A DNA stretch of 57,933 bases, taken from contig JBIJDH010000034.1 of the NCBI GenBank assembly GCA_044344255.1, positions 1 to 57,933 on the forward strand, read 5' to 3'. The DNA is from Myxococcota bacterium (lineage in GTDB: Bacteria > Myxococcota_A > UBA796 > UBA2385). The translations under genes and the position numbers were made by a program. Below, piece by piece: positions 1,575 to 42,714 of the stretch. A model generated the notes under the pieces. That model worked only from the letters and a program-made list of their open reading frames with translations, made no database searches and was not told the DNA's origin. Numbering within the stretch: the first letter of the stretch is position 1; every line of letters starts with the position of its first letter.

Positions 1575-2393
1575 TCACTCTCCTTCCTCAAATGGACAAC
1601 CTCTCTCGTCTCCGCTGAATTGACGTGCGATACTGCCCACAGTGACTCGACTTATCTTGACCAGATTTTTATCCGCCTTGAAGAAGAGATTGAGCGTTTT
1701 TTCGTTATAGACGACACGAATTTCAGCATCCTCGACTCCCACCCGATAGGTGTCGCCATCGATAGAGAGCATCGGATAGTACATGCACGATTGGTTGACC
1801 TCGAAAACAGCCATTCGTCTTTGTAAACCCACGAACTGGCCTATCCCTCCCATCTCATCAGGAGAAGGCAATTTAGTAGGCTCTGCGCTCTCTGTGCCAC
1901 CAAAGGTCCGAAGTGACTTTCTTTCGTAGAGAGGAATACGGCCACCCTTAGCAAAGGGTGCCGCCCCTCCGGCGGCGAGGTATCCAGCGAGCAAAAATTC
2001 CCATCTAGATTGGGTAATAACGACATATCGAATCTTGGAGAACTCGACCCCTCCTCCTGTTATCCAACCATGATCCGTAGTGACCAGGAGTAAAAATGGC
2101 TTCTGGTCTGCAGGGTGAACTGCGAATACTACAGCAGTAATGGATGAAAGATCTGAAATACTGCTGGCCTCCCACTCCACCAAATAGAGTTCAAAGTCCT
2201 TGAGCTCTGGTCTTGTGGCCAACACCCACTCAACCGCGTCTAGTTCAAGTTGCTCCCTCACGAGATGCACCAGGGCTATCGCCGACACCACTGCCACGGC
2301 AGCGGCCGCGCCGGCCGCAGCCGGTGTTCCCTCTGGCTCGCGGGCATCGGCTTCGCCACTGAGTGCGGCGAGCAGGAGAGTGATCATCATCAA
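1575..2393 (-). CDS. hypothetical exported protein, lower GC than flanks
   Basis: 272-aa ORF with signal-peptide-like N-terminus (MITLLLAALSGEADA). Visibly AT-richer codons. Confidence 0.7.
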   Translation of the reverse strand: MMMITLLLAALSGEADAREPEGTPAAAGAAAAVAVVSAIALVHLVREQLELDAVEWVLATRPELKDFELYLVEWEASSISDLSSITAVVFAVHPADQKPFLLLVTTDHGWITGGGVEFSKIRYVVITQSRWEFLLAGYLAAGGAAPFAKGGRIPLYERKSLRTFGGTESAEPTKLPSPDEMGGIGQFVGLQRRMAVFEVNQSCMYYPMLSIDGDTYRVGVEDAEIRVVYNEKTLNLFFKADKNLVKISRVTVGSIARQFSGDERGCPFEEGE

Positions 2394-2869
2394 GGCGATC
2401 TCGTTGGAAGGTAGAAGTTCGGGAGGTCACAACCCTCGTAATCAACTTCTCGTTGACGCGCCTCTGGCCAATGCCAGCATCCCCCCGACACACGGGTAGC
2501 TCGGCCCAGGGGTCCAAGAAGGATCCAAACATCAACTCAGCCGCGAATAAGGCATCATGGTGCGTTGGATTTGCCCCGATTTCGTAGACAGCCTCGGCCC
2601 CACCCTACCCGTAACCCCAGCCCGAAGGCATCGTTCCCCACCGCCGCCACTCTCCCCCGCGTCGGCGTGAGCCACACATCCGACCGCCCATCTTGCCGCC
2701 CCACCAGCCCCTCCACCGGCCAGGCCGCGCTGTTCGCCACCACCAGCGCGAGCGCCGAGGGCAGCGTGAACCGCACCCGCCCGTCATCCGCGCCGACCTC
2801 CAGGGTGCCGACCATCCGCACGTCGAAGACGAAGCCGAGGCCGGACTCTGCTTCGGGACTCCGACAATC

Positions 2870-3766
2870 CTACCGGCACACTTCGGCGGCCGCTACGGAT
2901 CGCCCTTCGGGCCTTCGGTGCTCCTTCCAGGAGCCGGAGGCGATCACGAGCTCCCCCGATGGCGCCGCGAGCCAATAGGTCCAGGCCAGGGCGCCCGCCG
3001 TACTCCCTTCCACCACCTGCACGACCCTCCGCACGAACAGGGAGCCGCCCTGGCCGAAGCCGCGGAAGCCCTCCACGCGGTCGAGGCAGCGGACGGCCAA
3101 CTCCAGGTCGGCGACCCGGACCACCTCTCCCCTCACCTGCTCCGCCGCCTCCCCGGCGGGCACCATCCCCGGCCAGGCGCCACAATCCAAGAGCCGCCCC
3201 GGGGCGACCGCCGCCCGGATGTTGCGGACACCGGCAGGGGCGAGCGCCCCATGGCGACACTCCCCTCGGAGGAGCGTGCCGTACACGAACAAGGCCTCCA
3301 CCGCGGAGGCGACCTCCCCTCGCGCAGCGGCGGCCAGGGGCTCGAGGCCGGCCGCCTGCCCATGCGCCCGGAGCCCGGCGCGCACAACGGCGAGGTAGTC
3401 CGGGCGGGGCGCCACGAAGGCCTCCCGGCGGGAGGGGACGACCTCGTATGTCTCCACCTCGACCTCCACGCCTTCCTCATCGAGGACCACCACCCGAATG
3501 CGCCGGAGCCAGTGGGGGTGCCCTTCCTTTCGGTTCAGCACCGCCCAGCCGCCGGGCGCCACGTGAAACAGCATGCCCACGACCACAGCGCCAGGGCGGG
3601 GCACGATGTCGAGGGCACCCCCACCGCGGCTCGGCGAGAAGTAGGTGAAGGCCAGCGCCCGGTCGGGCAGGAGCGCCGGGCCGACGGGCGTGAGCAAGTC
3701 GGCCCGGCCCGTGCTTCGGGCGAGGTCCTTCGCGTTCAGGTTCGAGCCATAGGCGAAATAGAGCAT
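2870..3766 (-). CDS. tandem gamma-glutamylcyclotransferase (AIG2-like) domain protein
   Basis: Two GGCT signature starts, MLYFAYGSNL and LFVYGTLLRG, plus LNRKEG and LDRVEG. ATG at 3766 preceded by GAGGGAG RBS. Confidence 0.85.
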   Translation of the reverse strand: MLYFAYGSNLNAKDLARSTGRADLLTPVGPALLPDRALAFTYFSPSRGGGALDIVPRPGAVVVGMLFHVAPGGWAVLNRKEGHPHWLRRIRVVVLDEEGVEVEVETYEVVPSRREAFVAPRPDYLAVVRAGLRAHGQAAGLEPLAAAARGEVASAVEALFVYGTLLRGECRHGALAPAGVRNIRAAVAPGRLLDCGAWPGMVPAGEAAEQVRGEVVRVADLELAVRCLDRVEGFRGFGQGGSLFVRRVVQVVEGSTAGALAWTYWLAAPSGELVIASGSWKEHRRPEGRSVAAAEVCR

Positions 3767-3792
3767 CTTCTCCCTCGATTTTCTCCCTGCTG

Positions 3793-4254
3793 TCATAGAG
3801 CACCCGGGCGACGCCGGCCAGTGAACATTTCCAGGCGCTGGAAGCGGATCCGTTGTTCCACCCAGGAGAGGCATGCCGCCACCGGATGGAGGTCCCGCTC
3901 GATGAGGGGCTCGATGCCGTCCACCGCTTCGAGGTGGAGCAGGCGCTCCTGAAGGTCCGGCGCCAGCTGTAGGAGGCTCAGGACCTGGGTGACCCGCGCC
4001 CGCGTGAGCCCCTGGCGACGAGCGAGGTCCGCTTGGCCCGGTACGAGCCCGTGCTCGATGTCGTGCTCCCATTGATGGGCCAGCGAGAGGAGCTGAGCCA
4101 CACGCGCCGGGCGGCGGCAGGGCTTCCGCGGGGGTGGCACCGGCCCGGGAGGCGGCGCCCCGCGCACGCGGCCCAAGGCCTCCCCGAGCTGCAAGACCAC
4201 CACACGGCGTCCGAGCGCCGGAGCGGGTGGCCCGGGCGGCGGAAGGGGGTTCAC
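3793..4254 (-). CDS. recombinase-associated HTH-like accessory protein
   Basis: LAHQWEHDIEHG...ADLARRQGLTRARVTQVLSLLQLAPDLQE is the motif typical of genes following DUF2924-linked recombinases. GTGA overlap with the recombinase stop. Confidence 0.75.
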   Translation of the reverse strand: MNPLPPPGPPAPALGRRVVVLQLGEALGRVRGAPPPGPVPPPRKPCRRPARVAQLLSLAHQWEHDIEHGLVPGQADLARRQGLTRARVTQVLSLLQLAPDLQERLLHLEAVDGIEPLIERDLHPVAACLSWVEQRIRFQRLEMFTGRRRPGAL

Positions 4255-5864
4255 GCGCCCTCCCCGACCGCGGTGTCCGCCGAAGCGGCGAGATCCGCGA
4301 GCACCACCGCGACCTGCCCGTTGTCGCCCTGAATGTCGATGCGCTCAATGACCGCGCGCAGCAGCCGGTGCTGATTCTCCAGGGTGAGCAAGGGCCAGGC
4401 CCGCTCGAAGCCCCGGAGCATCCCAGCCACCTGCCGGGCGTCCACCTCCGCCGCATCGAGGGCCTCCAGGCGCCGGTGGACCACCGACAGCCGGGACCGC
4501 TTCTGGGCCGCCTGCTCCTCCAGCTCCGCGCGCCGCTCCTGGTCCTCCGGCCGCAGCAGGCTCAACCGGCCTTGGCCGGGGGCGCCTCCCAACCGTTCCG
4601 CCTCCTCGGCCAGCCGCGAGATGTCGCGCGGAAGCTGCTGCCGCTCTGTTTGAAGGTCGCGGCGCTCCCGTTCGACCCGTGCCCCGAGCTCCCGGCAAAC
4701 GTCCTCGACCAGCCCCGGGTCCGCCGCCACCTCCCGCATCTGCGCGACCACCGCCTCCTCCAGGCCCGGGGCCCGGACCGGCGCCGCCGGGCAAGCATCT
4801 GCGCCGAGGCGGTCTCGATTCGAGCACCGGTAGTACCTGTATTCCTGGCCCTTCTTGCGGGTGGAGCCGGCGACGTAGGCGGCCCCGCAGCACCCGCAGC
4901 GCACGAGGCCGCTCAGCAGGTAGGCCGTGTTGCGGCCGCCACCTTCACCGCCGCGACGCCGATCGATGAGGGCCTGCACCGCCTCCCAGCGCTCCCGGGG
5001 CACGATGGCCTCGTGCTCCCCATCCACAAGGGTATCCCCGGAGCGGATGAGGCCCGCGTAGATCGGATTCTGGAGCAGGTTGAGCACCGCCGGCTTCGTC
5101 CACCGCCCCGGGACGCGATCGGCGCCGGGCCGCCCGCGGGTACGGTGCCCTTCCGCATCCAGGGCGCGGGCCACCCCGATGGGCGAGGGGCTCTGGTGGT
5201 AGAGCGCGAAAGCCCGGTGCACGGCCACCGCCTCGCTGGGCTCGATGACCAGCCGCTTGTTCACGTTCGTGTAGCCGATGGGCAGGGCACCGCCGGTCCA
5301 CATCCCCCGCTCCCGAGCCGCAGCAATTTTGTCCCGGGTGCGCTCGGCGGTTCGCTCCCTCTCCATCTGCGCCAGGGCCATCAGCACCGTGGTCATGGCC
5401 CGCCCGAAGGGGGTGGTCGTGTCGAACTGCTCCGTGACGATCACCAGCTCCGTGCGCCGGTCGTTCAACCACTCGACCAACTGCACGAAGTCGCTGGTGC
5501 TGCGGCTGATGCGGTCGAGCTTGTACGCCACCACCACGTCCACCAAGCCATTCTCGATGTCGTCCACGAGCCGCTGGAAGGCGGGGCGGTCGAGCGTGGC
5601 CCCGCTGAAGCCCCCGTCATCATAGCGGGTGTCGAGGATGCGCCAGCCTTCCCGGGCCCGCGTCTGGGCGTGCTGCTCGCAGATGGTGCGCTGGGCGTCC
5701 AGGCTGTTGAAATCCTGGTCGAGGCCCTTGGTCGTCGACTTGCGGGTGTAGATGGCCACCCGCTTCGTCGGCACCGCGGCGCTCCCCGAGGAACGGCTGG
5801 CGGGCCGCCCCAACGGCCGCCCGGGGCCGCGGCTGTGGCGGGTCGTAGGAGGAGGTCGGCTCAT
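4251..5864 (-). CDS. large serine recombinase (resolvase + recombinase + Zn-ribbon domains)
   Basis: AIYTRKST catalytic Ser, YDDGGFSGATLDRPAFQRL, YKLDRISRS, LLSGLVRCGCCG, YYRC, coiled coil. ATG at 5864 overlaps the DUF2924 stop (ATGA). Confidence 0.95.
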   Translation of the reverse strand: MSRPPPTTRHSRGPGRPLGRPASRSSGSAAVPTKRVAIYTRKSTTKGLDQDFNSLDAQRTICEQHAQTRAREGWRILDTRYDDGGFSGATLDRPAFQRLVDDIENGLVDVVVAYKLDRISRSTSDFVQLVEWLNDRRTELVIVTEQFDTTTPFGRAMTTVLMALAQMERERTAERTRDKIAAARERGMWTGGALPIGYTNVNKRLVIEPSEAVAVHRAFALYHQSPSPIGVARALDAEGHRTRGRPGADRVPGRWTKPAVLNLLQNPIYAGLIRSGDTLVDGEHEAIVPRERWEAVQALIDRRRGGEGGGRNTAYLLSGLVRCGCCGAAYVAGSTRKKGQEYRYYRCSNRDRLGADACPAAPVRAPGLEEAVVAQMREVAADPGLVEDVCRELGARVERERRDLQTERQQLPRDISRLAEEAERLGGAPGQGRLSLLRPEDQERRAELEEQAAQKRSRLSVVHRRLEALDAAEVDARQVAGMLRGFERAWPLLTLENQHRLLRAVIERIDIQGDNGQVAVVLADLAASADTAVGEGA

Positions 5865-6607
5865 CGGGCACCCCTTCCCGCCCGCGCCGGGGCGGCCGTG
5901 CCCGCGGCCCCGCTGGCGGCCCGGAGGGCGAAGAAGCGGAAGCCGTTCCAGTCCGTGCCTGTGATGGCCTTGGCCACCTCGGAGAGGGAGCCGTAGGGGC
6001 GGCCCTTCCACGTGCAGCCTTCGTGTTCCACGATGACCTCCTGCTCGACCCCCTTGTAGACGCGGCGGAGGGCGGTCCCGGGCGGCGGCAGTCGGGGATC
6101 GCGGCTGCTGGGCAGCACCGACTCCGCCGATCGCGTGCCCCGCTCCACGCCCGGGCGAGCCGCCGGCTTCGCGGGCGGCACCGCCGCGCCGTGGCCGGCC
6201 CTGTGGGCGCCGATCGGGTGGCGGCGCTCGGCCTCGCACCAGGCGAGCACCTCGTCGATGCGCTGCTTCGCCCGCTCCGTCAGGCCCCCCTCCACGAGGG
6301 TCTGGACGCGGCGGGCGACCTTCTTCTGGAGCCAGTCGCGGTTGCGGGAGCGGCAAGGCTCATCGTGCAGCCGGAGATACTCCTCTGCGAGCTCGGAGAC
6401 CGACAGCGTGGGCAGGATCGACAGGTAGCGGGCGATCTCCGACAGCGGCGGCGGCGAGACCGCGGCGGCTGCCATCGGCCGTCGGCCCATCGGGGCCGAA
6501 AAGGCGGGGTGGAAGGCGGGGGTGGGGGTGGGCATGGGCGCTCCGGCGACAGGAACGGGGACGAGGGTGGTGGGCGGGAGGAGCCGCGCGAGGGCGGCTG
6601 CGATCAC
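5861..6607 (-). CDS. DUF2924 domain-containing protein
   Basis: PPPGTALRRVYKG...WKGRPYGSLSEVAKAITGTDWNGFRFF. Lies directly upstream of the recombinase. Start uncertain. Confidence 0.88.
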   Translation of the reverse strand: MIAAALARLLPPTTLVPVPVAGAPMPTPTPAFHPAFSAPMGRRPMAAAAVSPPPLSEIARYLSILPTLSVSELAEEYLRLHDEPCRSRNRDWLQKKVARRVQTLVEGGLTERAKQRIDEVLAWCEAERRHPIGAHRAGHGAAVPPAKPAARPGVERGTRSAESVLPSSRDPRLPPPGTALRRVYKGVEQEVIVEHEGCTWKGRPYGSLSEVAKAITGTDWNGFRFFALRAASGAAGTAAPARAGRGAR

Positions 6608-7035
6608 CGTCGCGAACGCGAGGTCCGCGGCGGTGACCCCATGTCGGCCTGACGATTCGCACCCGTCAAGCAGGAAGATTCATGTTTCGAAGGAGCGGCT
6701 CGGACACCCGGCGAGGCTTTCGACACGGGCGCCCGAACGCCCTCAATGAGGTCCGCTGGGCCACCGGGCCCAGTGAGCCCCTTTGACTCACTCGAGGCCC
6801 TGGGCACGCCACCGCTGTAGACGAGCGCCAGGAGGGCGGTGGCGAGAAGCTCCACCACCTCCTGCCGACGCGCCCGGCCGATGAACTGTGAGCAACCGGC
6901 CTCGGGGACCATAGGGCGCCGCCCGCCGTCCCCTTGTCGGCTCCCCGGCCGGGTTTCCGGGAGCCCAGGGCGGGGCGCCGAGCCGCCAGCCCGCAACGGC
7001 GGCGAGGGGCTGCCAGGAAAGCGCGTGCGGTTCAT
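6604..7035 (-). CDS. small hypothetical protein upstream of DUF2924
   Basis: Overlaps both neighbours by 4 bp. Helix RRQEVVELLATALLALV resembles small ORFs found at this position in such elements. Confidence 0.5.
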   Translation of the reverse strand: MNRTRFPGSPSPPLRAGGSAPRPGLPETRPGSRQGDGGRRPMVPEAGCSQFIGRARRQEVVELLATALLALVYSGGVPRASSESKGLTGPGGPADLIEGVRAPVSKASPGVRAAPSKHESSCLTGANRQADMGSPPRTSRSRR

Positions 7036-8204
7036 GGCAGCACCCCCCAGCGAGGCTGCACCTTGATGTCCACGCCCGCGTCCACGCCGGTCTCGCGGAG
7101 GCCCTGGACCATGCAGGCCCGCACCACCTCGGCTCCTTCCTCGGCCAGTGCCTCCGGAACCGCCATCACCAGGCCGTCATACATCGTCAGGACCAGCCGG
7201 AGACCCGTTTCGGCCTTGAGGGGCTGGAGGATCGCCAAGGCTCGATCCAGGGCGCTCCCCTCAATGGCCCGAAACAAAGAGGAGATGACCCTCCGCTCCG
7301 CGGCCTCCCGATCGGCCTCCAGGTTCTTCCCTTTGCCCCCCACCTTGCCGGAGAGCTCCGCCGCGCTGAAACGGAAGCAGTGACCATCCGGGGCCCGGAT
7401 GGTGAGGCCTTTCCCGGCATCAACTTGGCGCCGGATGAGCGTCCGGACATCGTCCAGAAAGGCCTTGAAGCCGCCGTAGCGCAGCCACCACTGGTCATGG
7501 ACTCGGCAGGCCCGCTCCAGCGGCACCTGGATACCATCCTCATCGAGGGCCTCTCTCAATCCATACGCGGTGGCACCGCCCACCAGTGCGTTATTGATGA
7601 GCTTCCCAACCTGACGCCGGCGGGCCGCATCGAAGCGGGTGGCGTACATGTCACCGATTCGCTGGTGCATATCCGCCCGAAGATCCCTCTGCAGGCGGGC
7701 ATCACCCGTGAGCGCCGCCGCGATGGCCGGGAAGCAACCCTGGATGTCCGCCAAGACGAGGTCGTGCCCAGGAAGGGTCCGGATGGCGGGCCGCACCGCG
7801 TTCGGGATGGACTGAAGCAGTGCGCGGGGATGGGGGAGGTTCTTGTACCCATGCCGCGTGAGCACAGGGCAACCGTGGTGGCCCAGCAACCGGTAGGCGT
7901 ACCGCCGACCGCCGTGCTCTTCGCGACCTACGGCGTTGTAGGTGAATGGGGTGCCCGTCTTCGCGGACCGGCTGAGCAGCTCCACGATTGGCCCCCTCTC
8001 CACCGTCGTGGACTGGTCGATCCTGGCGAGCCATTCCGCCAGCAACGGCCAGAAGGCATCCGGGTCCATGCGGAAGGGTGCCGGCTTGGCAAACCAGGAC
8101 GCCACCTCATCCCGCGAGGCGGAGGGCCGCTGATCCAGTTGGAGAGTCTCGGGCAGGTTGATGTCAGGCACATTCTCTCCACTATCCGCGGTGTTAATGG
8201 TCAT
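7032..8204 (-). CDS. divergent family A (PolA-superfamily) polymerase domain, no exonuclease domains
   Basis: LQSIP..VRPAIR..PGHDLVLADIQGCFP (motif A), RRQVGKLINNALVGG (motif B), LVLTMYDGLV (motif C), C-terminal IKVQPRWG. ATG at 8204. Confidence 0.8.
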   Translation of the reverse strand: MTINTADSGENVPDINLPETLQLDQRPSASRDEVASWFAKPAPFRMDPDAFWPLLAEWLARIDQSTTVERGPIVELLSRSAKTGTPFTYNAVGREEHGGRRYAYRLLGHHGCPVLTRHGYKNLPHPRALLQSIPNAVRPAIRTLPGHDLVLADIQGCFPAIAAALTGDARLQRDLRADMHQRIGDMYATRFDAARRRQVGKLINNALVGGATAYGLREALDEDGIQVPLERACRVHDQWWLRYGGFKAFLDDVRTLIRRQVDAGKGLTIRAPDGHCFRFSAAELSGKVGGKGKNLEADREAAERRVISSLFRAIEGSALDRALAILQPLKAETGLRLVLTMYDGLVMAVPEALAEEGAEVVRACMVQGLRETGVDAGVDIKVQPRWGVLP

Positions 8205-8251
8205 TGCTTCACCCGTATGGTTGTGGTTTCTCCGATAGGCACTCGCGATCC

Positions 8252-8533
8252 GGCCCGCTCCGCGCCGCTTCGCGGCGCTTCGGGGCCCCCCCTCCTTCCT
8301 CTCCTCCCCGCTCCTGCTCCTCCCCCTCCTGGCGCGCCGGTGCTTGTGTTCGGGTGGGTTCGGGGTTGCGGCCGCCTCCACCCACCCGTCCCCCCACCCC
8401 AGGAACCGGAGCCGAATGTCGGAAGGCGAACGGACGAGAGCACCCTCGGCGACAGGAGGGACAGGAGGAGGGCAGGAGGGCAAAGGAGCCGGGGGGGCCC
8501 CGGAGGCGCCGCGAAGCGGCGCCGGAGCGGGCC
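8252..8533. repeat. long imperfect inverted repeat (~42-bp arms), each arm carrying a GC-stem GAA-triloop hairpin
   Basis: Arm 8252-8292 (ggcccgctccgcgccgcttcgcggcgcttcggggccccccc) is nearly the reverse complement of arm 8491-8533. Confidence 0.85.
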
Positions 8534-8729
8534 CTTTCCATCGCTCACCCCCGACCACTGGCGCCCGATGCCTGAGTGGCCTCCCTCTCGCCCCGGTGGC
8601 CTCCCCTGCGCCCCGGGGGGTTCTCCGTAGAGCGGGGCGCCACTTATCACCATCGAAGGCTTGTTCTACCCCTGTCGCCCCGCGCGCCCCGCTCTTTCGC
8701 GCACACCACTCATTCTCAGAGGGGCCGCG

Positions 8730-8925
8730 AAATAGTTGTTCTTGGGTCCACTTCCGAGACGGCCAAAAACATTTCTTTAACGGACTCTCTATATAGACAT
8801 GGTGTTCTCTTAATGCGGGGCACCCGTCCTTCTCCCCAGCGAGAACACCCTCCCCTGGCTGATTCCCGAGGGCCCCGCCAGGGCGGGGCATCCCGGGGGC
8901 AGCATCGGGGCGGGTGGGGCACCCC
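8730..8925. promoter_or_regulatory. candidate replication origin: AT-rich tract plus GGGGCA(C/T)CC repeats
   Basis: AT-rich 8730-8814 in GC-rich surroundings. Repeats at 8815, 8883 and 8914, just 3' of the helicase gene. Confidence 0.45.
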
Positions 8926-8961
8926 GCGGGGCGGAGCGCGCATGGTCGCTGGCTGCGGGCC

Positions 8962-11900
8962 CTACAGCAGGTCATCGCCATCGCCCACCTCCCCCGGTGC
9001 GGACTGCGACTCATCGTCCTCGCCGATCTCGACGAACGCCTCACGCTTGATGACGACGCAGCGTTGCCGCATGTTGGCCCCAATCGTGACCTTCGACCGC
9101 ACGTGGCCGGATTCTCGCTTGAGCCACCCGCGTCGGGCCCAGGCAGCGATGATGCCCTCCGGTTCGTGACGGAGTTCGCGGAGGATCTCGTCCAGCCGCG
9201 TTGGGAGGAATGCAATGCTGGGCCAGTCCTCCGACATATCCCAGGCGCCGGCCCAGCCGCGGAGCGGCTGCGGAGACTCGCTTTCGCTCGGCCGGCGTTG
9301 ATGTCGGCCCCAGAATTCCCCCTGGTGACTCGTCGCCCAGGAGCGAATCTGCTCCAGCGCTCGCTTCGGAGGGTCGGCCTCGTGCATCGAGGTGACGCTC
9401 GCATTCCAAACAGCGCGCAATACCCCTTCCGGATCGCCCGCAATCCCGAGAACGGTGTGCACGAGGCCACCCGCCAGCTCCAGGCTCGCGAAGTAGGCTG
9501 CCATGCGGCTCGCGACCGGGTGGCCATTCGCGACCAGAAGCCAGGCATTATGCCGCTCTTGAAATTGCTCGCGTAGCTTGTGGAGTTCCGGCCACCGCCG
9601 GTGCAGCTCGAGAACGATCATCGGTCCGGCATGACCGTAGTGGCGCAGGACGGCGGCGTTGAGCTCCGCGGTGAGGCTGGCCGTCTGATCTGTGACGGTC
9701 CCGAATGGCGATCCGGGAAGGACGATCACCCGTGCGCGGGCTCCTCCGTCTTCGGTGAACGAGTTGATCGCGCTCTCGCCTGTAGAGAGCATCACGGTGC
9801 GCCAGCTCCCCGTCTGTCGCATGCCATCGACGCTACCACGGCCGCGCCCCTTTCCACTTGTAAAGTCATAGATCACCTGAGAAACGACCTTCGGCTGCCT
9901 CGCCCGCTTGGTGTCATCGATGATGAAGGGCAGATTCCCCAGCAAGGCCGCCATCCGCTCTATGGACACGCGGGTCTGGTCCCAGGTGGACAGCATCCCG
10001 CCGGCACGCTCGTCGGGGCGGCCCCAACAGGACGCCGCGATCCGCAACACGGTCGTCTTGCCCCGCGAGGTCTCGCCGCTCCAGTCGATGATGAAGTTCG
10101 GTGCATCCGGCAGAAACGGCATCAAGATCGGAACAATCGCGGCGTAGATCGCGAGCACAACATTCGGATAGGGCAGGCAGCGTTTCACCGCTTCCCGCCA
10201 CTTCTCGAAGCTGCCTGCCCCAACAAATGCGGACACGATTTGCCCGCCACCGTCATCGTCTGGAATATGCAGGTAGATCGAGTTGTCCTGCCAGGTGTCG
10301 GGGGTCGTCTGATCCAGCCTTCCACCACTCTGGGCCTGGTCGTTGAGCGGATGGTCGCTACGAAGCAACCGGCTTCCCCAAAGAAAACCACCTTCGCCCG
10401 TACCATCAACCCAGCCCATCACTTGCGAGACGCGCGCACGCGGGAGAACGGAGATGTTCGCGCTCTCGAAGGCCGCCATCCAGCCAACGATCCCGCCTGC
10501 ATTGAGTGTGTGGACGGGTAGGTCGTACCTAGCCAGGGCGAGAATCTTCGCCTTGTCCGCGACATGGTCGCGCATCACCAGGCGGTGGTGCCAGCGGCCG
10601 CCGTAGACCCAGGTCAGGCGCACCGACGTCGTGCCGGAATGCACATCCACCGTCCGACCCGTGATGAGGAGGGGCGCGGTGCAGATCAACTTCTCCTTCG
10701 ACTCGCCTCCAGGGCCTCGAGAAACCTCCACGACCCCGCCTTTCAGCGTGACCGCGAAGGGGTGAGGAACCACCAGGCGGTTCGCCGAGGGGATACCGGG
10801 AACCTCAATCCCCAGCATGGATCCCTCACCCCCGCCCTCGGCGTCATCTCCTTGCTTCGCCTCTCGGCGAAACCGGGTCGCCTGCTTCTTCAGCATCTCC
10901 TCGAGCTTCTTTGCTGGGCCGCCGAGGCCATGCCGATCGCCGATCTGCTCGATGGCGGCCTTCATCGCCTCGGGACGGGCGGCGTAAGCAGCCACCAAGA
11001 GGCTCATCTCCGCTTTATTCCTCATCACCTCCTCGATCGCAGCTTTCGCTTGGCGCTTGTCCACTGCGTCCTGCACCTGCTGCGCGAGGACCTCGATCGA
11101 GGCGATTCCTTGAGCGACCGGGTCGGCGCTCGGTGCTCGATGACCGAGATCGGTGAGAACGATGAGCTGCTCGACGGTAAGCACGCCAACCTGCGAAGCG
11201 AACCTGCCAGAGGTGAGCCGCCATGGGCGCTCGGCGAGGTTGTCGCCCTCCGCCGCCAGGGTGCCCAACACATGCACGCGGGCCCCAGGGCGGCCACCCT
11301 CCATGCTGATCTCAACTACCGCCGTGGCGTATGCCGCGATGATGCCATCGAGCGCCTTACAGACGAGCTCCCGGTTTTCCACCGTGGGGTCGAGATCCGG
11401 CAGGCGATATACGAGCTCCCAGCCGGCCCCATTGCGCCCGGCGAAGGCCGGGCTCGGCAGGCCGGCCTCCAAGAGGCCGTCGTTCAGTTGGTGGGCGACC
11501 ACGGTGGCGGCCTCAACCTCCTCCTTCGTCGCCGAGACGCCGAACGGCCGCTTGGCCTCGATGCGAACGACGAGGTGCCGAAGGCACTCGATGTCGTCGT
11601 CCGCGGCGTAGGCCGGCGACCCAGGCTTGAGCCGGTTGTAGCTCCGCGCTCGCAGGGTGGGGTTCACCGGATTCACCGTGATCCACACGTCGGCGGCGTC
11701 CGCTCCCGTGATCCCTATGCATTCGTGCACCAGGGCGGTGGCATTTCCGAAGTACCCGGCTACCTTCCCCCACAAATGAGCCGGACCCTTCTTAACACCC
11801 CCGAGCCGGACCTCAAGCACTTCGCCGGCCCGCGCGAGCACCTTCCACAACGCCCGCGTCTGCTCCTCTGGGGTCGAAGGTTTGAAGAAGGCCGGCGTAA

Positions 11901-12378
11901 ACTCCTCGCTCCGCTCTCCCGCAGTGTTGCCGTCCGAAGGGGCCCCCGCCTCCGTCTCCACCTTCGGCTCGATTGAAGTCCGCTCCGCCTCCGTTGCCGG
12001 TACCCCCGCCGCAGAGACAGCCTCGTTGTCCCCCTGCGCCTCATTGCCGCCTTGCTCGGCGGGCTCCGGAAGCACCTCGGGTGGATAATTGGCTTCGATG
12101 CGGGCGGTCGTCGCCGGGACGCCGTCGGCCACCATCGGGGCCTCAGGTGGCGACGTGGGTGGACCATCGCCGGAAGGCCCGCCCGACTCAGGCTCCTCCC
12201 GGTCGCGTGGGGGCGGGGTGACAGCGGTGGCGTTCTCGGCCGGCTCACCGACGCTCCCGGTGGCATGCTCACCGGGGGTCGAAGCGGGCGCGTTGTTGTC
12301 GTCGATCACGGGCTTCTCATGGGGTGGAGTGACGAATTGCGTGGTTGCGGGGGATGCGCACAGGTGGCGAGGCGTCAC
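8962..12378 (-). CDS. DUF927 primase-helicase-like protein with degenerate N-terminal primase domain
   Basis: DUF927 region (ICTAPLLITGR...SQVMGW), Walker A SGETSRGKTT, Walker B FIIDD, GKGRGRG, LSTGE, HYGHAG. GTG at 12378 overlaps the xis stop. Confidence 0.88.
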   Translation of the reverse strand: MTPRHLCASPATTQFVTPPHEKPVIDDNNAPASTPGEHATGSVGEPAENATAVTPPPRDREEPESGGPSGDGPPTSPPEAPMVADGVPATTARIEANYPPEVLPEPAEQGGNEAQGDNEAVSAAGVPATEAERTSIEPKVETEAGAPSDGNTAGERSEEFTPAFFKPSTPEEQTRALWKVLARAGEVLEVRLGGVKKGPAHLWGKVAGYFGNATALVHECIGITGADAADVWITVNPVNPTLRARSYNRLKPGSPAYAADDDIECLRHLVVRIEAKRPFGVSATKEEVEAATVVAHQLNDGLLEAGLPSPAFAGRNGAGWELVYRLPDLDPTVENRELVCKALDGIIAAYATAVVEISMEGGRPGARVHVLGTLAAEGDNLAERPWRLTSGRFASQVGVLTVEQLIVLTDLGHRAPSADPVAQGIASIEVLAQQVQDAVDKRQAKAAIEEVMRNKAEMSLLVAAYAARPEAMKAAIEQIGDRHGLGGPAKKLEEMLKKQATRFRREAKQGDDAEGGGEGSMLGIEVPGIPSANRLVVPHPFAVTLKGGVVEVSRGPGGESKEKLICTAPLLITGRTVDVHSGTTSVRLTWVYGGRWHHRLVMRDHVADKAKILALARYDLPVHTLNAGGIVGWMAAFESANISVLPRARVSQVMGWVDGTGEGGFLWGSRLLRSDHPLNDQAQSGGRLDQTTPDTWQDNSIYLHIPDDDGGGQIVSAFVGAGSFEKWREAVKRCLPYPNVVLAIYAAIVPILMPFLPDAPNFIIDWSGETSRGKTTVLRIAASCWGRPDERAGGMLSTWDQTRVSIERMAALLGNLPFIIDDTKRARQPKVVSQVIYDFTSGKGRGRGSVDGMRQTGSWRTVMLSTGESAINSFTEDGGARARVIVLPGSPFGTVTDQTASLTAELNAAVLRHYGHAGPMIVLELHRRWPELHKLREQFQERHNAWLLVANGHPVASRMAAYFASLELAGGLVHTVLGIAGDPEGVLRAVWNASVTSMHEADPPKRALEQIRSWATSHQGEFWGRHQRRPSESESPQPLRGWAGAWDMSEDWPSIAFLPTRLDEILRELRHEPEGIIAAWARRGWLKRESGHVRSKVTIGANMRQRCVVIKREAFVEIGEDDESQSAPGEVGDGDDLL

Positions 12379-18676: not shown

Positions 18677-20197
18677 ATGAGCAGAAAAGAGATCGACCGT
18701 TCGTCACCCGCCTCCGCGGCCACGGCGCCGCAGCCGGGCTCCACGCCGCGCCGTGAAGGCGGACCCGTCCGACCCCGCGCCGCCTCGGCCTGGGCGCCGC
18801 GCCGGGGCCTTCTCCTGGCTCTCGTTCTGGCCTTCGGCTGCACATCCGACGGCGGCGACAAGGCCGGCGGCAACATCGACGACTCGGGGGTCGCCTCCGG
18901 CCATGACGGTGGCGGGGACGGCTCCGGCGCCGATGGCGCCGATGGCACCGACGGCGCCGACACCGGCGGCCCCGTGGACGCCGATGGCGACGGCTATGCC
19001 GAGGACGACTGCAACGACGAGGACGCCTCCATCCATCCAGGCGCCTCGGAGACCTGCGATGAGGTGGACCAGGACTGCGACGGCGCTACGGACGACGAGC
19101 CCACGGACGGCACCACCTGGTACCAGGACGCCGATGGGGACGGCTACGGAGATGCCGGAGCCCCGGTGGTCGCATGCACCCAGCCCGACGACACCGCCGC
19201 GACGGACGGTGACTGCAACGATGGGGACCCGAACTTCAGCCCCACCGCCACGGATGTGTACGGCGATGGCTACGACCAGAACTGCGATGGCATGGACGGA
19301 ATCGACGCCGATGGGGATGGGTGGCGCTCCATGGCCACGGAGGGGGACGACTGCAACGATGGTGACGCCTCCATCCACCCGGAGGCCACCGAGGTCGGCT
19401 GGGACGCGATCGACCAGGACTGTGATGGGGAGGACCTTCACGACTATGTGCAAGTCTCGGTGGGCTACTCCTTGGCCTGCGCCCTCGCCACGGATGCTCA
19501 TGTGGACTGCTGGGGGAGCCTCACCGAGGTGGTCCCCAGCGCCGCCTTCGAGCAGGTGAGCGCCTACCAGGGGCAGGCCTGCGGGGTCGAGGTGGGAGGG
19601 GCCGTCCAATGCTGGGGCGGCTCCCTCATCCCGCCGACGGATGCCTTCTCCCAGGTCTCCGTGCAGCGGTCCTATGCCTGCGGGGTGGAGACGGACGGCG
19701 ACCTCGCTTGCTGGGGCTCCGACACCTACTCGCTCACGGAGCCGCCCACCGGCAGCTTCACGCAGGTGGACGTTGGTCAGTACAACGCATGTGCCGTTGC
19801 AGCCGATGGCACCCTGGCCTGCTGGGGCTTGACGAGCCACGAGGTGGACGAGCCCCCCAGCGGCACCTTTTCGCGGGTCGCGATGGGGCACAGCTATGCA
19901 TGCGCCCTCGACACGGTGGGCGCGGTTCGGTGCTGGGGCGACAGCAGCTACTTCGAGGGGACCACGCCGCCAGCGGGCACCTATGTGGACGTGACGGTCG
20001 GCTACTACACGGCCTGCGCCCTCTCCACCACCGGCGCCATCCAGTGTTGGGGCGGCGACTACTACGATCTGTTGACGCCACCCGGCGGGGCCGCCCAGGA
20101 CATCGACCTGCGCCACAAGACCGCGTGCTCCATCGATGCCACGGGGGAGATCCTCTGCTGGGGCGACGACGGCTTCGGGGTGGACACCCCTCCGTAG
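18677..20197 (+). CDS. lipoprotein with MopE-like putative metal-binding repeats and RCC1/BLIP-II-like repeats
   Basis: Lipobox LAFGC. Three DADGDG..DC[ND]D...[IF].P.A....DQ[DN]CDG repeats. Repeated VSVG..ACA...G...CWG units. Confidence 0.9.
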   Translation: MSRKEIDRSSPASAATAPQPGSTPRREGGPVRPRAASAWAPRRGLLLALVLAFGCTSDGGDKAGGNIDDSGVASGHDGGGDGSGADGADGTDGADTGGPVDADGDGYAEDDCNDEDASIHPGASETCDEVDQDCDGATDDEPTDGTTWYQDADGDGYGDAGAPVVACTQPDDTAATDGDCNDGDPNFSPTATDVYGDGYDQNCDGMDGIDADGDGWRSMATEGDDCNDGDASIHPEATEVGWDAIDQDCDGEDLHDYVQVSVGYSLACALATDAHVDCWGSLTEVVPSAAFEQVSAYQGQACGVEVGGAVQCWGGSLIPPTDAFSQVSVQRSYACGVETDGDLACWGSDTYSLTEPPTGSFTQVDVGQYNACAVAADGTLACWGLTSHEVDEPPSGTFSRVAMGHSYACALDTVGAVRCWGDSSYFEGTTPPAGTYVDVTVGYYTACALSTTGAIQCWGGDYYDLLTPPGGAAQDIDLRHKTACSIDATGEILCWGDDGFGVDTPP

Positions 20198-23141: not shown

Positions 23142-23544
23142 GCTCCATCTCCGCGTCGGGGTCTGTCCATCGGCAGCCGTCGTTGCCCTTGTCGTGCCGG
23201 GGCTCGAAGAGGAAGAGGTGGTAGACCACGTCCCCATCGGGGGCTCCCCAGACCTCGGCCCCCGGGTCGAGCAGCAGGACGTCCTTGTCCGAGGCGAGGC
23301 GCGACGCCCCGATGGGGTTCGCGGCCCCGGGGAACTGGATGGTTTCGCCCTTGTCCGTCTTCGCGCAGACCCACCCTTCCCGTCCACGGACGCGGATCCG
23401 AAAGAGCTCCCCGGAGCAGACGGCGGTGGCGGGTCGCCAGTCGGCAGTGCAGCCGGCCACCGTAGGGCCCGCCGGGGGGCAACGCGTCTCGACGGTCACC
23501 GTCATGGTCGGGATAGCTGCGGCAAGGAGGAGCATCAGGATCAT
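23104..23544 (-). CDS. small secreted Cys-containing protein
   Basis: Signal-like MILMLLLAAA. Six Cys. ATGA-coupled to the caspase gene. Confidence 0.7.
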   Translation of the reverse strand: MILMLLLAAAIPTMTVTVETRCPPAGPTVAGCTADWRPATAVCSGELFRIRVRGREGWVCAKTDKGETIQFPGAANPIGASRLASDKDVLLLDPGAEVWGAPDGDVVYHLFLFEPRHDKGNDGCRWTDPDAEMELRIPHVDCPVRR

Positions 23545-25268
23545 GAGACGGACCGGACGAGGCGAACACCAAGGGCACTCCCCCGGGCGGAAACCGGGAT
23601 CGAGCTCCGGACGCTCACCCCCGCGACGGCGGGGTGGAGGTGCGCGGAGCCGCCGCGGGCTACCCGGGAGTGCTTTTGTTGAAGATCCGCCTGTGTTTCA
23701 CCGCGGCCGCCCCTGCTCCGATCGTAGCGATCCCAGCACCACTCCTTTACATTTCCGGTGAGGTGGCAAAAGCCGCCCTGATTCCCACTGTCCGCAGGAG
23801 CAAGATTAGGCCATTCGTCTTCCTGGGCCGTGTTCGCACCGGTAATTAGCTCTTCCATGCTGTCCATTCCACCGGCAAAAGGCGTGCGGTATTGGCCGCT
23901 CGACAGTCGTGCTGCCACCTCCCATTCGTCCTCGGTTGGCAGACGCCAGCCGTCCGCTCCCGGCACCTGCTCCACCTTGACCACTTCGCCCCTTTCGTCG
24001 CGGATGAAGCGATAGGCTTTGCGGAGGCTGGAACCCGCACCGTTGCAGAGGTCGGTTGAGGCATTGGCGAAAAGAACACTATCCAACCAGGATATGTTGA
24101 CCATAGGCAAATCCGCTCCTATGTAGTCCCTGTCAGAGATGCGCTCCGTCACAGACAGCAGCCCTACCGACTTACCTGCCAGGCGCTCCCAGAGTGCTTG
24201 AGTCACCTCGGTACGCATCATTCGGTAGGGTGCCACCGTCGCGTGGATTACACCGTCGTCCCATCCACAAGGGCGACCGCCCTCATCGTCCACTTCAGGG
24301 ACGCAACCGAGCAACACTGGGCCGTCCGGGTCCAAGAGCACAGTCACCACGCCGAGGATGGCATCGGGGTCGGCCCCACGACTCTCACCCGGACTCAAAG
24401 GCACCAGAACAACGGGCTGCTCCAAATAATTCACGTTGGCCGGTCGCTGCCGCCCGGTCGTGGTTCGGATTACCTCCCGTCGGGCCTGGGAGAGCGCGTC
24501 GCTCACGCTCACCCCAGGCGCAAAGAGGTACTTGAGCAGCGCCGCGGTGTAGGGGCTGTTGACAGCTTTGTCGTTGGCGATCTCAAAGGCTCGGGCACCG
24601 GGCTCGGTGGCGAAGCCCACCGTAGTGTTCCTCGACACCTTTCCGCTAATTGTGGCCAGCCCCCCTTCGTCAGATCCTCCCCCTTTGCCATCGGGTCGGT
24701 TTCGGCAGCAGTCGAGGAGAACCACCACGGGCGGCCCTTCGCTCAAGCTCCCCCCTCCGGCCTGTGGTCGGGCGGCGTCAATAACGGAGTAGATTTCCTT
24801 CACGGGGAAAACGAGAGAGAATTGTCCATCATAGATGGGGACATCGGTGATGGGGACGATGTAGTTCTCACCGGTAAGTTCGTCGCGAAACCCATGAGCC
24901 GAGATGAAGAGCGCGCCCTCGTCCGCCTCCTGGAGAGCCGCGCCGAACAGACCAATCGCCACAGAAAGCTCATCGCGGGTGCAATCCACCCAGACCTTAC
25001 CTCCCACGAGACTGTAGCCGCACTCACCCAGCTTTGCAGCCATCGCTCTGGCGTCCGCCTCAGCGAGCTGAAGACGTTGGAAGTTGGACTTCTCTTTGTA
25101 CCTTTGAATCCCGGCGACCAACGCCACTTTGCTTCCGGTCACGGTGCCCGGTGGGTACCGCACTCCCTTCGCACCTTCCGGGCTGGGCCGTGCCAGCGCC
25201 GGGGTCAGGACCGACGAGGCGAGTGCGGTGGCGCTGGCGGCGCCGAGGAGGAGCTGGCGACGGTTCAT
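23541..25268 (-). CDS. Tat-exported caspase-family (peptidase C14) + FGE-sulfatase domain fusion
   Basis: Tat signal MNRRQLLLGA. ALVAGIQRY, catalytic FISAHG and LLDCCRN, NSPYTAALL, QRP. FGE motifs TEVTQ, WRLPTEDEWE, GNVKEWCWD, RGGS, GVRLVR. Confidence 0.92.
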   Translation of the reverse strand: MNRRQLLLGAASATALASSVLTPALARPSPEGAKGVRYPPGTVTGSKVALVAGIQRYKEKSNFQRLQLAEADARAMAAKLGECGYSLVGGKVWVDCTRDELSVAIGLFGAALQEADEGALFISAHGFRDELTGENYIVPITDVPIYDGQFSLVFPVKEIYSVIDAARPQAGGGSLSEGPPVVVLLDCCRNRPDGKGGGSDEGGLATISGKVSRNTTVGFATEPGARAFEIANDKAVNSPYTAALLKYLFAPGVSVSDALSQARREVIRTTTGRQRPANVNYLEQPVVLVPLSPGESRGADPDAILGVVTVLLDPDGPVLLGCVPEVDDEGGRPCGWDDGVIHATVAPYRMMRTEVTQALWERLAGKSVGLLSVTERISDRDYIGADLPMVNISWLDSVLFANASTDLCNGAGSSLRKAYRFIRDERGEVVKVEQVPGADGWRLPTEDEWEVAARLSSGQYRTPFAGGMDSMEELITGANTAQEDEWPNLAPADSGNQGGFCHLTGNVKEWCWDRYDRSRGGRGETQADLQQKHSRVARGGSAHLHPAVAGVSVRSSIPVSARGSALGVRLVRSVS

Positions 25269-41000: not shown

Positions 41001-42051
41001 CCTCGCCCTCGTGCTCGGCCCTCTCGTCGAGGCGAAGAGCGTCCCCGCGCTCGCCGCGCTCCGCTACAGCGACGCCGGCCTCTTGAAGCGCCGGGAGTGG
41101 GAGAAGACCTGGGAGGCCCAGCGGGCCGAAGACGCCTGGGCCGCCGCCGACCCCGCCACCCGCGGCCCTGCGCCGCCCGCGCCGCCGCTGCCGCCGAAGT
41201 ACGGGAGCGGCGACTTCAAGAAGCCCAGCATCTGGACCCAGCGCGGCAAGCTCGACGTGCCGAAGGAGCGCTTCTGGTCGCTGCCCGCGGTGGACGCGGG
41301 CGGGCTGCGGGTCGGCTGGGCTGGCTGGGACGCGCCCACCCGCATGGCCGCCCTGGCCGCCGCCGCCGAGGCCCACCCCGAGCCCGAGGTCCAGACCCCC
41401 ACTGTCGCTACGATGCTCGAGCTCCTACCCGAGCTCCTCCAGTGGTGGGGCGAGGACCGGCGCTACGGCGAGCCCCTCCGCGAGGTCTGGCCCCCGGCCA
41501 TCGAGTCCTTGCGCCTCGGCCTCGGCCTCTCCGAGGCGGCGCTGCGCGACTGGTGCCCTGCCGGCCGCGGCCGCCCGGCTCGCGCTCCGGCGCCGGCCAC
41601 CGACTCGGAGGGCGCCCCGCCCCGCCGTGGTCGCCCCCGCAAGGCGGCCGCTCCGCCCGTCGAAGCGGCGGGTCCGACGCCCGCCGAAGTGCCGCAGCCG
41701 AGCCCGCCGCCCTCCACCCTCCGGCCGAGCTTCCACCCCGAGGCCCCCGCCCAGGCCACCCTCTTCGGGCTCGCGCCGCCTCCCACCCCTGCCGCCGCAT
41801 TCGCCCCTGCGGCCCCCGAGCCACCCCGCCGCGGCCGCCCACCCCACCGCCTGGAGCCCGGGGCCCTCGAGGCTCTGGTCCGCCCCCTCTGGCCTTTCTG
41901 GACGGAGGGCGTGGGACGTCAGTCGCTCGTACAGCTCAGCGGCGCCCCGCTGGCCGCCGTTCAGGAGGCCGCCGACGCGCTCGTCGCGGCGGGGCGGTGG
42001 GCCCTCATCAAACGAAGGCCGATCTTGTGGCGGCCGGCGGGCGGAGAGTAG
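38059..42051 (+). CDS. pglX: BREX type 2 adenine-specific DNA methyltransferase PglX
   Basis: [63 protein letters not shown]. Confidence 0.96.
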
Positions 42052-42057
42052 ACCCGC

Positions 42058-42714
42058 TCAACGAATCTCGGCGTTGAGCGCCTCGACGAGGTCTACGACG
42101 AGGGTGCAGGGCGCCGCGAGAGCCGGGGTGGCATCGAGAAGGGCGGCGTGGAGCTGTTTGAGCTTTTGGGCATGTCGGATGCCCACGGGCTGCCGGCTGC
42201 TCAGGAGGCTGTACATGTCCGGATCATTCTTCTGGTACCGGGCGCGCAGCCCGGCGCGCGACAGCACCTCGCTGAGCTTGGCCGCCACGACATCTCGGTG
42301 GAGAGCGCTCTCGCTGTACTGGAAATGCAGCAAGTACCAGAGCTCGAAGGACTGGTTCGACCATGCGGCTCTCCAAACCTCAGGCCGTGTCGAATTCATG
42401 GCTCCGATCGAGGCGGCTGCCTCATTGAACTGCTGAGCCGAGAAGTCGTCTTTGTCGTACACCACCCAGACCTGGTCAAAATAGCTGCCCCCCTTCGCCC
42501 CCACTTTTGCCAGCTTCTCGGCCTGAGCGACCAGGGAGGTCGTGTTGTACCCCTTGCCATGAACCGAGACATGAACCTCGGAAGGGACGGGGAAGGCGCG
42601 GAAGTAGTTGGTCTCCGTCACCTCCCCTTCGCAGACGATGAGAAACCGCTTTCGGAGCGGGCGACTCGCCACGGGTCGTCTGCCCGTCCTCCCGGCACGG
42701 CTATTGCCGCTCAT
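42058..42714 (-). CDS. rloB: RloB-family (AbiLii-like, TOPRIM) protein
   Basis: FLIVCEGEVTETNYF, VWVVYDKD, WSNQSFELWYLLHF, PCTLVVDLV. Confidence 0.92.
   Translation of the reverse strand: MSGNSRAGRTGRRPVASRPLRKRFLIVCEGEVTETNYFRAFPVPSEVHVSVHGKGYNTTSLVAQAEKLAKVGAKGGSYFDQVWVVYDKDDFSAQQFNEAAASIGAMNSTRPEVWRAAWSNQSFELWYLLHFQYSESALHRDVVAAKLSEVLSRAGLRARYQKNDPDMYSLLSSRQPVGIRHAQKLKQLHAALLDATPALAAPCTLVVDLVEALNAEIR

Follow-up and report, generated by a model that had tools for sequence, protein, structure and literature searches.

The TV-Pols, divergent relatives of bacterial DNA polymerase I (Pol I), were predicted to be primase-polymerases that arose through displacement of the prim-pol modules of archaeo-eukaryotic primases (AEPs) (Iyer 2008, PMC2579912). 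According to Bebel et al. (PMC7581432), CcPol of the staphylococcal cassette SCCmec is the only TV-Pol that had been characterised. Its complex with the protein MP is the single characterised case of a Pol I-type enzyme starting chains. Here, we analyse contig JBIJDH010000034.1, the entire 57.9-kb length of which (57,933 nucleotides) we call the window; it belongs to the lake metagenome-assembled genome (MAG) of a Myxococcota bacterium, an assembly of 8.18 Mb in 83 contigs. At 7032–8204, the window encodes a family-A polymerase of only 390 residues, P0001, next to a helicase gene of the replication-initiator kind. We propose, with about an even chance of being right, that P0001 and the upstream helicase provide a mobile island with its replicative DNA polymerase, and that this polymerase is likely also the primer-maker. 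Primer-making is likely because the helicase's own primase-like domain appears to have lost its catalytic residues.

The mechanism we envisage runs as follows. The serine recombinase would excise the island, and the helicase would recognise the spacer that follows its own gene, with its repeats, and open it, as the Rep protein of Staphylococcus aureus pathogenicity islands (SaPIs) and Cch2 do. The mini-polymerase would then synthesise DNA on the exposed strands, either starting de novo or extending very short primers, in the manner of CcPol–MP, most likely with deoxyribonucleoside triphosphates (dNTPs) as substrate. The dead AEP-like domain or the acidic tail of the helicase, both candidate substitutes for MP, could hold the template or the polymerase, although this step is speculation. 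The genes concerned, in the order in which they are read, are:

8962..12135, minus strand: SaPI-Rep/Cch-type helicase gene, 1057 residues from M162 of a longer open reading frame (ORF), as predicted from domains, gene call and codon-position GC

11059..11916, minus strand: AEP-primase-like N-domain of the helicase (residues 235–520 of the long ORF), with degenerate catalytic motifs by motif alignment

7032..8204, minus strand: polymerase-domain-only family-A polymerase gene (P0001, 390 residues), from ORF translation, Pfam and the AlphaFold2 (AF2) model

5861..6607, minus strand: DUF2924 gene, start uncertain (Pfam, PHROGs)

4251..5864, minus strand: large serine recombinase gene (Resolvase, Recombinase and Zn_ribbon_recom domains), likely start ATG at 5864 (Pfam)

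A 757-bp spacer separates the helicase from the polymerase, and ~425 bp separate the polymerase from the DUF2924 gene; codon-position GC reveals no ORF with a coding signature in either. The stop codon of the DUF2924 gene and the likely start of the recombinase gene share an ATGA at 5861–5864, which suggests that the two are translationally coupled.

The polymerase gene itself is well delimited. GC by codon position is coding-like in the 7032–8204 ORF (0.70/0.48/0.81) and flat in the open frame upstream of its start (0.62/0.73/0.70 at 8205–9548). Because the codon-position signal is confined to the ORF and the starts of homologues coincide with that of P0001 in a 41-member family alignment, we take 390 residues to be the true length. 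Both observations disagree with a public 649-residue gene call (P0154, no name on record), which we regard as over-extended, and they rule out the 838-residue open frame as the polymerase.

P0001 is predicted to be a polymerase domain of the Pol I kind. Its residues 135–387 match Pfam DNA_pol_A (PF00476) at 36.4 bits, against a gathering cutoff of 34.3; the 41-member family profile finds Taq Pol I with E 2.4e-23, and the PHROGs match is phrog_17, 'DNA polymerase' (E 3.6e-16). In NCBIfam, PolA models match only far below threshold. The AF2 model, built from the 41-sequence alignment, has a pLDDT of 94.6 and a pTM of 0.92; its best solved matches in Foldseek are KlenTaq and Pol I (E 3e-14), and its fold matches in BFVD are ordinary phage PolAs. 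Because model residues 1–388 cover Klenow 508–926, P0001 appears to comprise a complete polymerase domain, with thumb, palm and fingers, and nothing else. The model contains nothing N-terminal to the thumb and no remnant of a 3'-5' exonuclease, and Pfam and NCBIfam scans find no exonuclease domain. The thumb helices occupy residues 48–83, followed by a beta-hairpin (residues 91–105) that carries the invariant R100 (AF2 model and alignment).

An earlier note on this DNA, made without database searches, had called the protein a minimal, exonuclease-less family-A polymerase and had pointed to Pol I and T7 RNA polymerase (RNAP) as the folds to compare. The comparison returns a polymerase fold. With VIA-align, the model scores Z 25.5 against Aquifex Pol I (322 residues aligned, root-mean-square deviation 3.2), 25.4 against the apicoplast polymerase, 24.7 against Klenow, 23.6 against Pol theta, 22.6 against Pol nu and 20.5 against T7 DNA polymerase. 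The RNA polymerases score lower: 13.6 for yeast mitochondrial RNAP, 12.9 for T7 RNAP and 10.7 for N4 RNAPII. Given Z values of 20–25.5 to DNA polymerases versus 10.7–13.6 to RNA polymerases, the modelled P0001 appears to be a PolA of DNA-polymerase type rather than of RNAP type.

The motif changes that the same note read from the letters are borne out by alignment with Aquifex and Taq Pol I. For the aligned positions called Y766, Q849, H881 and E883 below, we use what we take to be the Klenow numbering. The numbers of E710 and F762 are those of Bebel et al. 2020 (PMC7581432). Motif A of P0001, vlaD153IQGCF158P, aligns with DYSQIEL, such that the steric-gate Glu becomes F158. Motif B, R197xxxK201LINN205ALVG209G, aligns with RRxxKxxNFGxxYG; R197 and K201 are the Arg and Lys of the motif, N205 falls on Phe762/667 and G209 on Tyr766/671. 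In motif C, MY342D343G344 aligns with VHDE, placing Y342, D343 and G344 on the His, Asp and Glu. The two catalytic Asp residues, D153 and D343, are kept in 41 of 41 family members, as are R100, D168, K201 and E315; R138, H180, R197 (37/41), N204, W239, W240, R312 and G344 are nearly invariant. E315 and R312 lie on the helix that bears Klenow Q849. P0001 also keeps the Arg of motif 1.

These substitutions extend well beyond the window. We aligned 151 sequences, P0001 and its best 150 phmmer matches, to the family profile and defined the family signature as R312, E315, D343 and G344, which 73 of the 151 carry. Motif A could be aligned in 56 of the signature-bearing sequences; at the gate, these have H (29), F (19), N (6), Q (1) or W (1), and never Glu. 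In the same 56, the F762 position is N in 29, S in 14, L in 5 and eight other residues once each, and the Y766 position is G in 18, F in 12, A in 8, C in 7, S in 5, N in 2, M in 2, V in one and H in one. By contrast, the other 72 PolA matches with motif A aligned have E (44), H (16), Q (5), F (4), D (2) or S (1) at the gate and mostly F and Y at the two other pocket positions. The pocket of the family is thus altered from E710 to H/F, from F762 to N/S, from Y766 to G/F/A/C and from HDE to [YF]DG. Because the substitutions recur across signature-bearing sequences, the motif changes are, at the level of sequence, a stable family trait and not the decay of a single copy.

When P0001 was compared exhaustively by phmmer with 1.84 billion cluster representatives, 229 proteins scored E<=1e-3; of these, 76 reached E<=1e-10 and 29 reached E<=1e-30. 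Most have 370–405 residues. A word-indexed search returns a single close relative (63% identity), and the sole named member on record is a Myxococcota MAG protein called 'hypothetical protein'. Among 401 sampled genomes of the window's phylum, the family profile matches the host Pol I in nearly all, and matches over the full length of the family are confined to the window's genome and G292, a genome of the same taxonomic family. PolA-like genes of genomes G257, G377, G321 and G032 turned out to be either host Pol I or divergent PolAs of another, longer kind, and they lie outside the P0001 family. Two of the divergent genes sit on mobile-looking loci: in L024 (G257:C478), a 1425-residue protein that matches PolA weakly (7326–11603) has a tyrosine integrase and an MmeI-like enzyme as neighbours, and in L025 (G377:C276), positions 2364–4619 encode a 751-residue PolA near a DnaB-like helicase.

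Other collections contributed little. A search of genome contigs with P0001 only found no related loci, and the family alignment found nothing in viral contigs; in metagenome contigs it gave one 31-residue match inside a 137-residue ORF, which we judge spurious. With tblastn, P0001 has no match in the phage collection and eight weak ones in the plasmid collection (<30% identity, 44–64% query coverage), one on an annotated polA and seven on stretches with no listed feature. The surroundings of a Burkholderia plasmid match are uninformative.

The gene upstream of the polymerase is a predicted replication-initiator helicase of the SaPI-Rep/Cch type. This assignment follows from the DUF927 domain (PF06048, E 4e-30, best stretch ~9811–10233), the Cch HTH_56 domain (PF18662, E 9e-8, ~9046–9366), the match to phrog_8841 'DNA primase/helicase' (E 7e-95), and similarity to two solved structures, 8tch_A, a 'pathogenicity island protein' (E 3.9e-34), and 5dgk_A, Cch (E 2e-12). 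In NCBIfam, the SCCmec Cch1 model scores 58 bits, far under its cutoff of 700. The start at M162 agrees with both a 1057-residue gene call and codon-position GC. The protein ends in an acidic C-terminal tail, ...EDDESQSAPGEVGDGDDLL (~8965–9036). The protein SSB, which binds single-stranded DNA, and T7 gp4 have acidic tails that recruit partners, and the tail of the helicase may, by analogy, tether the polymerase.

The N-domain of this helicase bears on the question of priming. It has five homologues, a stand-alone 255-residue protein (P0158) and four genes in G257 and G292, three of which run on into P-loop helicases. In MAFFT alignments, motif I reads VVRIEAKRP (R-x-E) in the window versus hhDhDPxRP in all five homologues; motif II reads NGAGWE versus SGNGxH in four of five, P0158 having W for H; and motif III reads VEIS, with Ser (IS) where five of five have Asp (VD). 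The His and all three acidic residues that the homologues mostly retain are thus missing from the window helicase. We take DxD, sGxGxH and the motif III Asp to be the three classic AEP-primase motifs, in the naming of Iyer et al. 2005. LigD_Prim-Pol of Pfam matches two of the four genomic homologues below threshold (E 7.6e-5, 22.8 bits versus a cutoff of 27.4, and E 0.017), and RepB_primase is noted on 18% of one N-domain-related cluster in the ESM Atlas, which is a lead only. Neither the N-domain nor P0158 has a Pfam match above threshold, and PHROGs gives only weak phrog_19 matches to the N-domain. If the AEP assignment is right, the window helicase looks to carry a primase domain stripped of all catalytic residues, and this degenerate neighbour lends the priming idea indirect support.

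Two further loci carry the polymerase family, and in all three (the window, G292 and L038, a Myxococcota MAG) it is linked to a helicase. In G292, a P-loop helicase-like gene, cut at its 5' end by the contig end, immediately precedes the polymerase homologue. In L038, the polymerase homologue comes directly after a 547-residue P-loop protein that has no detectable AEP domain (E 0.35); this protein shares homology with the product of the G292 gene (31% identity, E ~1e-21) and with the helicase halves of AEP–helicase fusions. A tyrosine-recombinase-like ORF, judged by eye from the sequence, lies nearby in L038. Four other relatives, of 1017–1056 residues, fuse a superfamily-2 (SF2) helicase N-terminus to a signature-bearing polymerase. 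The earlier suggestion that this is a TV-Pol-type architecture found alongside helicases thus holds: the definition of Iyer 2008 is matched, and the helicase link recurs. Intact AEP genes, in turn, occur on four contigs (G292:C209, G292:C63, G257:C139 and G257:C359), none of which has a PolA-like match. In this small sample, the polymerase seems to travel with helicases that have no working primase, and intact AEP–helicases seem to travel without the polymerase. Iyer et al. reasoned from displacement in the same way when they predicted primase-polymerase activity for TV-Pols (PMC2579912).

Several observations weigh against a priming role for P0001, or against the island model as a whole. First, CcPol alone is strictly primer-dependent and requires the OB-fold protein MP for priming (PMC7581432), and the spacers flanking P0001 contain no MP-like ORF with a coding signature. 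Second, host DnaG or a 3' end made by the recombinase could supply primers. Third, complementarity compares one dead, one absent and one contig-cut primase domain with four intact genes that have no polymerase on their contigs, and those contigs, of unspecified length, come from two related genomes. Fourth, the AEP assignment itself comes from motifs and sub-threshold matches; the AF2 model of the N-domain (two-sequence alignment) is unusable, with a pLDDT of 39, and N-domain profiles, including a six-sequence one, matched no solved AEP. Fifth, Klenow E883 is Gly in P0001. Sixth, no excised or circular form of the island was seen in low-depth contigs from four lake-water runs, which gave identical sequence and unconvincing joints (all sides <30 letters). 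Finally, the functions of the family members are read from sequence and predicted structure.

One alternative is that P0001 is a primer-dependent DNA polymerase only, devoted to elongation or gap-filling during replication of the island or after its integration, with primers from host DnaG, another protein of the element, or a 3' end left by nicking or recombination. We consider this possible, if somewhat unlikely. The behaviour of CcPol without MP is the precedent, P0001 is flanked by no MP- or SSB-like ORF, its fold and motifs are nearest to ordinary Pol I polymerase domains, and SaPI primases are described as helpful but not essential for SaPI replication. Strict primer dependence would, however, leave two findings unexplained: the pairing of the polymerase with primase-dead or primase-less helicases and not with intact AEP–helicases, and the family-wide remodelling of the nucleotide pocket.

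There is also a bolder version of the priming proposal, which we rate as unlikely. In it, the making of primers would have passed to a PolA from an AEP primase that then decayed where it stood, leaving the dead domain as a template-holding accessory akin to MP. The His or Phe at the gate, the Asn or Ser of the O-helix and the Gly that replaces Tyr766 would then seat the initiating nucleotide, possibly a ribonucleotide. The window would thus capture a second, independent route from Pol I to primase, with displacement half-way.

The loss of the gate Glu raises the related question of which sugar the enzyme uses. The earlier note took this loss to mean that the polymerase might incorporate ribonucleotides (rNTPs) or synthesise RNA. 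On such a reading, an altered sugar pocket would admit rNTPs, and the product would be RNA or mixed primers, or the enzyme would act as a small RNA polymerase. The absence of Glu from all 56 signature-bearing sequences with motif A aligned and the polar Asn or Ser at the F762 position in 43 of them are consistent with that idea, as is the fact that most primases make RNA. Y639 and H784 of T7 RNAP hydrogen-bond the 2'-OH, and a gate His together with an O-helix Asn or Ser could in principle do the same. The substitutes at the gate are nevertheless bulky, being His or Phe in 48 of the 56, and none is small; in other families of polymerases, the steric gate is itself formed by an aromatic residue. 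The fold, moreover, is far nearer to DNA than to RNA polymerases by Z, and 390 residues leave no room for a promoter-recognition or N-terminal RNAP domain. In addition, priming by CcPol–MP is restricted to dNTPs (Bebel et al. 2020, PMC7581432). Because of the bulky gate, the DNA-polymerase fold and the dNTP-only priming of CcPol–MP, sugar choice leans towards DNA, and we judge an RNA-synthesising P0001 to be quite improbable; this part of the earlier proposal is not supported.

The rest of the contig carries defence and other genes:

33795–54136: type-2 BREX/Pgl system (PADLOC and domain hits), listed in the next seven entries, of which the RloB and AAA_21 pair is an interruption and not a part

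33795–38057: PglW-like kinase

38059–42051: PglX methyltransferase with DUF7008

42058–44027: RloB and AAA_21 pair, on the opposite strand, interrupting the BREX set

44234–48028: BrxC/PglY

48025–50721: PglZ

50547–52088: BrxD

52085–54136: Lhr-like helicase

29440–31683: KAP-family P-loop NTPase with PADLOC matches to PifA and QatA, in a low-GC patch (0.575 versus ~0.70)

23541–25268: caspase (Peptidase_C14) fused to an FGE-sulfatase domain

18677–20197: protein with MopE metal-binding motifs and RCC1 repeats

Of the three loci, two combine BREX genes with the polymerase family; in L003 (G292:C474), positions 59–679 encode BrxA (Pfam E 1.4e-40) directly after the polymerase homologue. One could therefore cast the polymerase as an anti-phage defence or repair component, for example as part of a helicase–polymerase accessory of the nearby BREX system at 33.8–54.1 kb, but PADLOC finds no match for the polymerase, helicase, DUF2924 protein or recombinase, the helicase is of replication-initiator type, islands of this sort often carry defence genes (PMC10061031) and the L038 polymerase has no BLAST-level relatives of the window's other genes beside it, which together make this reading highly improbable. 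The defence genes of the contig resemble the conflict-related cargo that PolA-SSB islands carry (Rice 2023, PMC10061031). Proteins like the caspase–FGE and MopE/RCC1 ones are typically encoded in the large genomes of predatory or social bacteria.

The spacer between the helicase and polymerase genes has three features that could belong to an origin:

8245..8540, no strand: long imperfect hairpin with pyrimidine-rich and purine-rich arms, just upstream of the polymerase start (single-stranded DNA folding)

8576..8615, no strand: two tandem 20-nt repeats, 85% alike (repeat search)

8730..8820, no strand: AT-rich trough, GC 0.42–0.43 versus ~0.70 regionally, ~150 bp downstream of the helicase stop (GC profile)

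The hairpin (~290 nt) has inverted-repeat arms at 8262–8335 and 8449–8522, each of 74 nt and 76% complementary. Folded as single-stranded DNA, 8245–8540 reaches -115.4 kcal/mol, versus -84.0 +/- 4.2 for shuffled sequences (z -7.4; none of 100 shuffles as stable), and it may serve as an origin or as an element for single-strand initiation, or else be a structured leader. The AT-rich trough is a candidate unwinding region. We predict that the spacer is origin-like because SaPI origins and the binding and priming site of Cch2 (PMC7581432) occupy the same place, directly downstream of the helicase gene. The corresponding spacer in L038 contains, at 9155–9271, three tandem 9-nt repeats (TGGTGAACYT) and, 80 nt away, an inverted copy of 20 nt with 95% complementarity; the overall fold of this spacer has a z of only -2.1, and the spacer looks like an iteron-type origin.

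Other scans of the window were sparing. Rfam and tRNA scans gave no matches, a promoter scan found none, and a terminator scan found merely two sites at chance level, both within the polymerase gene. A low-GC ORF (0.527) of no assigned family lies left of the recombinase at 1575–2393 and may be foreign DNA near the island edge. The window sequence is also present in lake-water metagenome runs.

More broadly, P0001 offers a compact system in which to study how a Pol I-type enzyme might start chains. The enzyme is confidently modelled and has no recognisable partner ORF, the pocket is consistently remodelled across its family, and the adjoining helicase is seemingly devoid of primase chemistry. 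If P0001 primes, the pocket and thumb changes that permit initiation become testable through residue swaps. If it does not, the locus would still be the first SCC/SaPI-like module of helicase, PolA and serine recombinase outside Bacillota in the literature we searched, and P0001 would be a useful small, exonuclease-free polymerase scaffold. Our full-text literature search found no account of such a module and no TV-Pol biochemistry beyond CcPol.

With bacterial Pol I (Klenow, KlenTaq, Aquifex), P0001 shares the fold over the whole protein (Z 24.7–25.5) and recognisable motifs 1, 2, A, B and C. It differs in having neither the 3'-5' nor the 5'-3' exonuclease domain, in a slightly shorter thumb region (a stretch of 409 residues in Aquifex Pol I corresponds to 372 in the model), in the substitutions E710F, F762N, Y766G, Q849R, H881Y and E883G, and in the extra invariant Glu, E315. 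With TV-Pols (PMC2579912), the P0001 family shares a short two-helix thumb, the invariant Arg of the beta-hairpin (R100), the two catalytic Asp residues (D153, D343), and the fingers Asp (D168) and RxxxK (R197..K201). Both groups also have no linkage to nuclease domains, and their genes, carried on mobile elements, adjoin helicase genes or are fused to them and have resolvase-type recombinases as neighbours. The P0001 family is nearer to bacterial Pol I, however, with a direct Pfam match and the profile match to Taq, whereas the TV-Pols of 2008 reached PolA only through iterations or HHpred (PMC2579912), and the partner helicase here is of the DUF927/Cch type and not of the D5 type. On Microcystis phage LMM01, the family profile finds only the ordinary split PolA (E 7e-4), and we judge likeness to TV-Pols from the published definition.

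Two other groups of polymerases offer parallels. The piPolB of pipolins is a functional analogue, a DNA polymerase of mobile elements for which priming with no separate primase has been proposed or shown, but it belongs to family B and is unrelated in sequence (Redrejo-Rodriguez 2017, cited in PMC10061031). The phage enzymes divPolA1 and divPolA2 (Yutin et al. 2024, PMC11348598) are, like P0001, divergent extra family-A polymerases that keep the palm residues and have reduced accessory domains. They differ in being phage-encoded next to a regular polymerase; moreover, divPolA1 keeps an inactivated exonuclease domain, and divPolA2 has no homologous thumb and has a novel N-domain (PMC11348598).

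A further comparison is with CcPol-MP/Cch2 of SCCmec (PMC7581432) and the PolA-SSB modules of Bacillota (PMC10061031). All combine an exonuclease-less family-A polymerase with a self-loading helicase module, adjoin a large serine recombinase and sit on an island with conflict-related cargo, and the candidate origin of the window, as in CcPol-MP-Cch2, lies just downstream of the helicase gene. There are also differences. CcPol retains the equivalents of E710 and F762 (E174 and F225; PMC7581432), whereas the P0001 family has H/F and N/S. P0001 contains no exonuclease remnant or other N-terminal SSB-binding segment, and the flanking spacers hold no MP/OB-fold ORF with a coding signature. Gene order is reversed, with the helicase preceding the polymerase. 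The helicase is of the Cch/DUF927 type, a type that does not occur together with CcPol in SCC and that Rice tabulates alongside RRM-only proteins (PMC10061031), and it carries a degenerate AEP-like domain. The host, finally, is a Myxococcota-like lake MAG, whereas all of the examples given by Rice are from Bacillota (PMC10061031). By predicted architecture and genomic context, P0001 matches the TV-Pol definition, and TV-Pol and CcPol are the closest kinds in architecture; what is new relative to the known modules, as far as sequence comparison reaches, is the pocket, the absence of an exonuclease remnant and of an adjacent MP-like ORF, the reversed gene order, the degenerate-AEP helicase and the non-Bacillota host.

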